A stretch of 39,299 nt of DNA from Escherichia phage phiHAO2-2, in sequence record PP079212.1. The stretch is one strand, 5' to 3'. Position 1 is the stretch's first letter; each line of letters begins with the position of its first letter. The notes below the pieces were generated by a model. It was not told the origin of the DNA and did no database searches. It was given only the letters and a program-made list of their open reading frames with translations. Below are positions 1,271-1,360 of the stretch, piece after piece. Made by a program: the position numbers and the translations under genes.

Positions 1271-1360
1271 ATGAACATCGGTTACTGGGTATGCCTAGCG
1301 CCAGTTATCTGGATGATAGGTTATGGTATATATGATTGTATTAAACGGAAATCACTATGA
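1271..1360 (+). CDS. Small hydrophobic peptide (29 aa), hypothetical
   Basis: ATG 1271 preceded by a strong SD (TAGGAGTT). Translation MNIGYWVCLAPVIWMIGYGIYDCIKRKSL has one transmembrane-like segment. Stop overlaps the next start (ATGA). Confidence 0.35.
   Translation: MNIGYWVCLAPVIWMIGYGIYDCIKRKSL

Follow-up and report, generated by a model that had tools for sequence, protein, structure and literature searches.

Four conserved short hydrophobic open reading frames of Escherichia phage phiHAO2-2 as candidate genes for small inner-membrane proteins

Four short open reading frames (ORFs), each encoding a hydrophobic peptide of 25-30 amino acids (aa), were analyzed in a stretch of 39,299 nucleotides (nt) from Escherichia phage phiHAO2-2 (PP079212.1), hereafter called the window. 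The ORFs are designated below by their first positions. The window belongs to Kayfunavirus (K1F-like, T7 group): the best megablast matches, obtained for the first 6 kb (470 phage records), showed 90-97% identity, and the gene order is that of T7, K1F and EcoDS1. A sequence-only reading had listed these ORFs as having plausible ribosome-binding sites or translational coupling. All four were present with a Shine-Dalgarno sequence and/or an ATGA overlap of stop and start codons, located as follows; three pairs of coordinates proved exact, and the third ORF occupies 16685-16777, one base off the 16686-16778 given earlier.

1260-1264, plus strand: Shine-Dalgarno sequence AGGAG, 6 nt ahead of the 1271 ATG
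1271-1360, plus strand: putative gene for a 29-aa hydrophobic peptide, MNIGYWVCLAPVIWMIGYGIYDCIKRKSL; ATG start, frame-specific selection
4809-4886, plus strand: putative gene for a 25-aa hydrophobic peptide, MTALQLLVLWLGALAVFTLIQRRRG, with the tail QRRRG; ATG start, frame-specific selection
16671-16677, plus strand: Shine-Dalgarno sequence AAGGAGG within the 3′-terminal part of gene 6, 7 nt upstream of the 16685 start and invariant in homologues
16685-16777, plus strand: putative gene for a 30-aa hydrophobic peptide, MDTIHVIYWVGLLALYCMYKWFGSNNRPKH; ATG start, PHROG 28149
22002-22008, plus strand: Shine-Dalgarno sequence AAGGAGG, 4 nt upstream of the 22013 ATG, directly after the Tphi hairpin
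22013-22102, plus strand: putative gene for a 29-aa hydrophobic peptide, MFLIYTGLALFVLFWAYLLPSSPSSPYDH; ATG start, frame-specific selection

Each peptide contains an uncharged hydrophobic stretch of about 15-20 residues, in agreement with the single transmembrane-like helix proposed for each ORF. The stretch comprises 19 residues in 1271 (residues 3-21), 15 in 4809 (18 including the preceding ALQ), 14-16 in 16685 and about 19 in 22013. The best 17-residue Kyte-Doolittle mean (maxKD17) was 1.49, 2.38, 1.52 and 2.12, respectively. Three of the peptides end in basic tails, namely 1271 (DCIKRKSL, net +2), 4809 (+3) and 16685 (+3). In 22013, the uncharged helix is followed by a Pro/Ser-rich tail with the C-terminal motif SPSSPYDH. 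For the 16685 peptide, AlphaFold2 (single sequence) gave a helix at residues 3-25 with a mean predicted local distance difference test score of 84. Among 515 other ORFs of 22-35 codons in the six frames, 7.8% reached a maxKD17 of at least 1.49, and none of the six with an AGGAG/GGAGG Shine-Dalgarno sequence did; this comparison is post hoc and is no test of chance, because the ORFs had been chosen as hydrophobic by the earlier reader. The only inter-gene plus-strand ORFs of up to 30 codons with a Shine-Dalgarno core of at least 4 nt were these four and a non-hydrophobic gp1.8 homologue (7783-7878), in a census of small plus-strand ORFs mostly within the gaps between large genes.

Relatives were taken from IMG/VR loci around gp0.6, gene 6 and gene 11 (designated by L-numbers) and from annotated GenBank genomes. 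Homologues were collected from both by local tblastn with the filter off and aligned as proteins. The ratio of non-synonymous to synonymous differences (pN/pS) was obtained by summed Nei-Gojobori counts, with the same alignments in two shifted frames serving as a control. In the ORF frames, pN/pS was 0.25 for 1271, 0.25 for 4809, 0.39 for 16685 and 0.42 for 22013; the shifted frames gave 0.95-1.4. Substitution events, taken as the minimal count per codon column, were distributed as follows.

1271: 33 synonymous and 22 non-synonymous events, binomial p = 6e-9
4809: 24 synonymous and 17 non-synonymous events, binomial p = 7e-6
16685: 26 synonymous and 20 non-synonymous events, binomial p = 4e-7
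22013: 17 synonymous and 21 non-synonymous events, binomial p = 2e-3

The share of synonymous events expected by chance is about 22-25%, and the same event count in the shifted frames revealed no synonymous excess (p 0.4-0.9). Many distinct nucleotide versions encode the same peptide. There were 16 unique nucleotide versions of 1271 (15 intact 29-codon ORFs and one in-frame fusion), 20 of 4809 (all of 25 codons), 24 of 16685 (29-30 codons, all ending in NRPKH, with one codon lost in frame on two different occasions) and four of 22013 (all of 29 codons). In the tblastn set, the frame was intact in the related genomes carrying the DNA, the 1271 fusion being the sole exception for that ORF. The GenBank phages carrying each ORF numbered 96 for 1271, 221 for 4809 (DNA search), 204 for 16685 and 48 for 22013 type A. 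The sequence-only reading had named comparative genomics as a check and a lack of conserved synteny as a sign against it; the ORFs were found to be conserved in synteny.

This comparative evidence, i.e., conservation and frame-specific selection, is decisive, and chance ORFs are thereby ruled out. Judged by the substitution pattern, it is the peptide sequences, not merely the DNA, that are under selection. Since the purifying selection acts in their own frames, the ORFs are very probably translated genes. It could be supposed that they are incidental and that the DNA is kept for non-coding reasons (hairpins, promoters, a terminator, ribosome-binding sites, the gene 6 overlap). Indeed, such elements adjoin all four, namely the hairpin at 1198-1252, the promoters at 5358 and 16835, the end of gene 6 and Tphi at 21958-21999, and about 8% of random small ORFs are equally hydrophobic. 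However, the variation sits exactly at the synonymous sites of one frame, and non-coding constraint would not give such a bias. The 15-24 unique homologues contain no stops or frameshifts, their indels are in frame, and strong Shine-Dalgarno sequences are kept at the right spacing. We regard this explanation as very unlikely.

The first ORF lies in the slot of T7 gene 0.5, between a hairpin and a gp0.6-like gene.

1198-1252, plus strand: two-tier RNA hairpin, probable RNase III processing site (R0.5 counterpart); minimum free energy -23.1 kcal/mol, z = -2.9
1357-1554, plus strand: gp0.6-like protein of 65 aa; PHROG 2385, annotated as 0.6 in EcoDS1 and K1F

The hairpin motif GAGTGAYAGACGAGAGGYC ... 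GGTGGCCTC ... ATCACTT occurs at two window sites only, 599 (~599-655, before ocr) and 1199. In relatives, the motif is found one to three times per genome, and substitutions in its inner stem are compensatory. The positions of the two window hairpins match those of the T7 RNase III sites R0.3 and R0.5, and cleavage is predicted; the hairpin at 1198-1252 is probably an RNase III processing site. In the homologues of 1271, which share 60-93% aa identity (96 GenBank phages), the AGGAG is kept or swapped for GAGGTG/GGGA. The TGA stop of 1271 and the ATG of the next gene (1357) form an ATGA overlap, by which 1357-1554 is translationally coupled to the 29-aa ORF; TAATG was also seen at 1271/gp0.6 junctions. 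The gp0.6-like protein has a strongly hydrophobic N-terminal helix, and the Pipis record notes a single transmembrane domain (TMD). The fusion mentioned above was found in L023 (~2600-2743), where an in-frame deletion makes residues 1-28 of the 29-aa peptide continuous with the 19 C-terminal residues of gp0.6 (MSVGYLVCLSPVIFLIAWGIYDCIKRKS-RFMCNLANVWDIATIGSKL). Therefore, either most of gp0.6 is dispensable in that phage or the fusion is an assembly error.

Other relatives carry other small genes upstream of gp0.6. A peptide of 53-55 aa, hydrophobic in two segments, is encoded in K1F (gp0.36, 55 aa; NC_007456, 1840-2007), L004, L008 and L017, and phiHAO1-1 (L001) has a 34-aa hydrophobic peptide, MSTAIIWTISGFVAWGMFTLVSKLPVLTQLFWGL, just upstream of the gp0.6 homologue. 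These occupy the same slot as 1271 and are unrelated to it in sequence and length. In L018-L020, nothing was found in this slot. In L014 and L015, the 29-aa ORF and one of the gp0.36 type seem to lie one after the other, which indicates that the slot holds interchangeable small hydrophobic genes.

An ORF in another frame (1201-1335, 44 aa in the window) overlaps 1271 and was considered as the real gene at this locus in place of the 29-aa ORF. It is the longer of the two, and two curated records, EcoDS1 and GA2A, annotate it as a protein of 46-47 aa. However, this frame is broken or truncated in seven relatives (L006, L010, L011, L012, L016, L021 and L022), in every one of which the 29-aa frame is intact. 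Its GTG start lies within the conserved hairpin and is not preceded by a Shine-Dalgarno sequence, the pN/pS of the frame is about 1.3, and PM129 and Bas105 annotate the 29-aa frame instead. The candidate was rejected on these grounds, and it is most improbable that the longer ORF is the gene.

The second ORF follows the RNA polymerase gene and one further small gene.

4612-4812, plus strand: 66-aa soluble-looking protein; PHROG 8082

The ATG of 4809 overlaps the TGA of 4612-4812 (ATGA), with a weak GAGG 7 nt upstream. The peptide is always preceded by the PHROG 8082 protein of 66-71 aa, with the junction AAATGAC. Among relatives, it is 68-92% identical to that of the window; its identity is kept at about 90% where the alleles of the upstream partner diverge far more. 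The last codons of 4809 (AGAAGAGGT) contain the Shine-Dalgarno sequence (GAGGT, in the RRRG codons) of the next gene (4890-5357, 155 aa), and 3 nt separate the 4809 stop from the ATG of that gene. In relatives, 4809 is followed either by the 155-aa gene or by a phage promoter directly after the stop.

The third ORF lies in the slot of T7 gene 6.3. Its first 19 nt are shared with the end of gene 6, and no further ORF separates it from a phi6.5-like promoter.

16835-16850, plus strand: phage RNA polymerase promoter core (phi6.5 equivalent), an exact match to ACTATCACTATAGGGA; phi6.5 of EcoDS1 is at the same place

This is the only one of the four peptides with a match in PHROGs: PHROG 28149 was matched over the full length (E = 1.3e-27; peptide residues 1-30 aligned with all 30 profile positions). 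The exact peptide is in UniRef B3VCV4, a cluster of 30 hypothetical proteins from Kayfunavirus. The gene 6/promoter junction holds a hydrophobic mini-ORF across the enterobacterial T7-group contigs, with very different sequences; among the contigs compared at that junction, the mini-ORF was absent from distant GC-rich relatives.

The fourth ORF lies between Tphi and gene 11.

21958-21999, plus strand: Tphi-like intrinsic terminator after gene 10, a hairpin with a U-run; the EcoDS1 terminator is at the homologous place

In K1F, EcoDS1 and most IMG/VR relatives, the U-tract of Tphi is followed by GCTTAAGGAGG and then by the gene 11 ATG, with no insertion. In these relatives, the sequence corresponding to 22002-22008 serves as the Shine-Dalgarno sequence of gene 11. 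The window and a subset of relatives have ~100 nt extra, flanked by the repeat TTAAGGAG, and this segment contains the ORF and provides gene 11 with a new Shine-Dalgarno sequence through the 22013 stop (TAAGGAG). An ancestral status of 22013 was considered and rejected; most relatives, including K1F and EcoDS1, pass from Tphi straight to gene 11. A second allele of equal length (MFYLLTALGLFVSFWAIILLTGPCSPYDR) has ~50% identity, and the hydrophobic pattern and the C-terminal motif are kept. Using tblastn, full-length relatives were found in the same slot of Klebsiella phages: a 29-aa peptide, MFIVLSAVSLAVATMLYVVVTGPCSPYDK, in six records of Przondovirus and a 37-aa peptide, MYYLLCISLLLFAGFWCYVLATGPVSEFERRDNANSK, in Molineuxvirinae, where it overlaps the gene 11 start. 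The tail motif TGP(C/V)S(P/E)(Y/F)(D/E) is common to the relatives in L134-L137. The pattern of the 22013 type can be written as M[FY]x[LIV][LY], ~14 hydrophobic residues and (T/S)(G/S)PxS(P/E)(Y/F)(D/E), always between the Tphi terminator and gene 11, in Kayfunavirus, Przondovirus and Molineuxvirinae.

Since relatives occupy the same slot in other phage groups, 22013 is a patchy, horizontally exchanged mini-gene. As far as sequence comparison goes, a pre-gene-11 peptide family that spans phage subfamilies is the one mildly new observation of this work. It is a speculative and rather doubtful proposal that the 22013 type forms an unrecognised late, horizontally exchanged family, which could serve at the membrane, for instance in superinfection exclusion, in the timing of lysis or against host defences. 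The Klebsiella phage relatives are unannotated and have their own AGGAGG Shine-Dalgarno sequence (L134 and L137, Przondovirus, 1501-1590; L135 and L136, Molineuxvirinae, 1501-1614). Upstream of the terminator, the stretch at 21823-21955 after the gene 10 stop matches the EcoDS1 'region of similarity to gp10B' (capsid frameshift extension) and ends just before the Tphi hairpin.

The junctions described above also allow another explanation, in which the ORFs are translated for coupling or spacing only, tuning gp0.6, the 155-aa gene and gene 11, and the peptides are functionless by-products. The tight arrangements at 1271/gp0.6 (ATGA/TAATG), 4809 (ATGA, with the next Shine-Dalgarno sequence in the last codons) and 22013 (TAAGGAG) would suit such a role. 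However, a coupling ORF needs no given aa sequence, whereas all four show an in-frame synonymous excess and the hydrophobic pattern is kept between alleles of ~50% identity. In many phages, 4809 is retained where a promoter and no gene comes directly after its stop, which argues against a pure coupling role. For 16685, there is no downstream gene to couple, the promoter being next, and gene 11 is expressed without the 22013 insertion in most relatives. Thus, coupling as the only role of these ORFs appears unlikely.

Hydrophobic mini-proteins of this kind have been known in T7 since 1983, and the T7 record annotates hydrophobic mini-genes 0.5, 1.4, 1.5 and 6.3. These are the proper T7 counterparts of the four ORFs. 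The sequence-only reading had compared the peptides with T7 gp0.4, a small early-region host-acting protein that inhibits FtsZ. This is a poor match: the protein lacks hydrophobic character (maxKD17 0.73 vs 1.5-2.4 for the four peptides) and has no similarity to them, as BLASTP gave no alignment with gp0.4. In addition, gene 0.4 is in a different slot, directly after gene 0.3.

By slot, 1271 and 16685 are the counterparts of T7 genes 0.5 and 6.3. T7 gene 0.5 encodes a hydrophobic protein of 47 aa (maxKD17 2.11); it lies after R0.5, and its stop codon forms an ATGA with the start of gene 0.6. Likewise, 1271 is early, directly follows an RNase III-type hairpin, has a basic C-terminus and forms an ATGA with gene 0.6; it is the hairpin and this overlap that make 1271 the positional counterpart of gene 0.5. 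The two differ in that the 1271 peptide has 29 aa and one hydrophobic segment, whereas gp0.5 has 47 aa and two, and BLASTP of the one against the other gave no alignment. Furthermore, T7 gp0.6A is not a membrane protein, whereas the '0.6' partner in Kayfunavirus is one. T7 gene 6.3 (18394-18507) encodes a 37-aa member of Pfam DUF5516 (PF17637), in which a single hydrophobic helix is followed by a short polar/basic tail. Both 16685 and gene 6.3 start within the last few codons of gene 6 (overlap of 19 nt vs 13 nt in T7), have no other class II ORF between them and the phi6.5 promoter, and encode a single helix with a polar/basic tail. A GTG start is found in gene 6.3 and in most Kayfunavirus relatives of 16685, while the ORF of the window has ATG. 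The 16685 peptide differs from gp6.3 in length (30 vs 37 aa) and has its own family, PHROG 28149. It gave no BLASTP alignment with gp6.3 and no match to PF17637 in Pfam at E <= 1, whereas the positive controls were recovered (T7 gp6.3, 2e-15; 6.3-slot peptides of L054, 8e-9, and L055, 1.4e-16). In the literature on a T3-like phage, TMHMM predicted TMDs for genes 0.6, 6.3, 17.5 and 19.5 (PMC4283147). For T7, gp0.5 is listed as uncharacterised and as a putative membrane protein (PMC12798971), and gp6.3 has been considered non-essential (PMC9825161). For T7 gp0.5 and gp6.3, we found nothing in the literature past 'uncharacterised', 'putative transmembrane' and 'non-essential'.

In our view, all four ORFs are probably genuine accessory genes that are translated into dispensable single-pass inner-membrane micro-proteins. 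Each peptide would form one hydrophobic helix with a short polar tail, inserted in the host inner membrane. According to the positive-inside rule, the three basic-tailed peptides (KRK, RRR and K..RPKH) would keep the tail on the cytoplasmic side and expose an N-terminus of 2-5 residues on the other. That the four peptides are translated and inserted, and how they are oriented, is what we infer from their sequences. The ORF 1271 would be expressed early, by the host RNA polymerase, as the first cistron after the RNase III-type hairpin, coupled to the membrane protein gp0.6. The ORF 4809 would also be early and ATGA-coupled to the 66-71-aa protein; both lie upstream of or between the first phage promoters. 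The ORF 16685, starting inside the end of gene 6, would be the last middle gene. The ORF 22013 would be a late gene on a small exchanged cassette, and its expression would need read-through of Tphi. The peptides may be host-interaction factors, as the sequence-only reading had supposed. It is possible that they bind or perturb inner-membrane components of the host as dispensable fitness factors, like T7 gp0.5 and gp6.3. A dispensable role is suggested because the distribution is patchy, cassettes are replaced at the 0.5 slot and T7 gp6.3 is classed as non-essential.

Small membrane proteins of ~20-60 aa with a helix and a charged tail act on inner-membrane components; they include bacterial single-pass proteins and type I toxins, such as TisB, ShoB and Ibs, and membrane proteins of phages for superinfection exclusion or from morons, such as HK97 gp15 and T4 Imm. 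Compared with type I toxins, the four peptides have no antisense-RNA or toxin-antitoxin context here, and the likeness is one of size and architecture. To our knowledge, no toxicity or exclusion phenotype has been described for them. The four ORFs were also considered as paralogues or one repeated family, and this was rejected: the peptides are unrelated, have only composition in common, and occupy different slots and transcription classes.

Several points weigh against the proposal that the four ORFs encode functional membrane peptides. The hydrophobicity of 1271 and 16685 is borderline (Kyte-Doolittle mean ~1.5, with Gly, Tyr, Trp and Pro within the helix). The event counts are minimal and have no tree correction, so they are lower bounds, and collection by tblastn followed by protein alignment is biased toward peptide conservation. 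With regard to the latter, the 1271 region was re-retrieved via nucleotide similarity and gp0.6 anchoring, with the same outcome as the tblastn set. Some codons have dual roles, namely RRRG in 4809, the first six of 16685 (gene 6 overlap) and the stop of 22013 (Shine-Dalgarno sequence of gene 11). None of the four peptides matched Pfam or NCBIfam, no significant PHROG was found for 1271, and no characterised protein similar to any of the four was found in Pfam, NCBIfam, PHROGs or BLASTP against T7 proteins. In the literature, we found no functional or translational data for the four ORFs, including Ribo-seq and proteomics.

The sequence-only reading had described the peptides as possibly unannotated. 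This applies to many records, in which the ORFs are omitted or mis-framed, but for each of the four, one or more of the related GenBank records (PM129, Bas105, GA2A, EcoDS1) list a hypothetical protein, and 16685 is additionally covered by PHROG 28149 and the UniRef cluster. The ORF 4809 is annotated in GA2A (BOW94_gp10) and carried unannotated in K1F (5474-5551), EcoDS1 (5486-5563) and PM129. The ORF 16685 is annotated in EcoDS1, PM129, Bas105 and others and unannotated in K1F (17032-17124). The ORF 22013 is correctly annotated in PM129-type records, and many records annotate nothing there. An exact look-up in a 15-billion-protein collection found the 30-aa peptide and K1F gp0.36 and none of the 29- and 25-aa peptides, which suggests that this collection has a 30-residue floor hiding genes of such size. 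Three of the four genes have fewer than 30 residues, below the cut-off of the protein collection, and are therefore missing from many Kayfunavirus records, including that of the type phage K1F.

Four apparent wrong-frame calls were noted at these loci.

EcoDS1, NC_011042, AS9_0003, 1493-1636: overlaps the 1271 homologue and starts in the hairpin
GA2A, NC_031943, BOW94_gp05, 1940-2080: overlaps the 1271 homologue and starts in the hairpin
Pipis, PV714130, 22582-22686: starts in the terminator stem; the correct 22013 frame is intact there
PM129, MZ234044, PM129_026, 16611-16727: alternative frame at the 4809 homologue, running through the promoter

As several records call such an overlapping spurious ORF, the comparative evidence fixes the correct frames and allows a cleaner annotation. 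The outcome consists of additions to an already known kind of mini-gene and of annotation corrections, with no new mechanism. It also provides a short defined list of candidate membrane-acting accessory genes in a group of phages used in therapy and engineering. A broader idea, as speculative as that of the 22013-type family, is that T7-group phages may carry interchangeable cassettes for membrane micro-proteins at fixed slots (0.5, post-1.05, 6.3 and pre-11), adapting to particular hosts.

The large genes of the window that frame these loci were assigned by gene order against T7, K1F and EcoDS1. Phage-promoter cores (ACTATCACTATAGGGA, up to three mismatches) were found 11 times in the window, against 0.3 expected. 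No Rfam family matched anywhere in the window at the gathering thresholds.

671-1003: ocr
1912-4593: RNA polymerase
5935-6984: ligase
15801-16703: exonuclease (gene 6)
20780-21823: capsid protein (gene 10)
22114-22680: tail protein (gene 11)
1825, 5358, 7054, 8034, 10334, 16835, 19656, 20660, 25067, 32344 and 38601: promoter cores

Three other small ORFs were observed. At 10402-10581 (plus strand), between the 10334 promoter and the primase/helicase gene, a 59-aa ORF that is absent from the list of the sequence-only reading is preceded by AAGGAG, a strong Shine-Dalgarno sequence. Its product begins with a hydrophobic segment resembling a signal peptide (MVTVILVLTLISGSGQT...), and its Pipis homologue is annotated 'single transmembrane domain'. 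The ORF at 38799-38957 (plus strand) is gp19.5-like, encodes 52 aa that include a hydrophobic segment, and has AGGAGG as its Shine-Dalgarno sequence. The non-hydrophobic ORF at 7783-7878 (plus strand), of 31 aa, resembles T7 gp1.8 by eye (SEWC..K..EET...Y..LY.LWK.RG).

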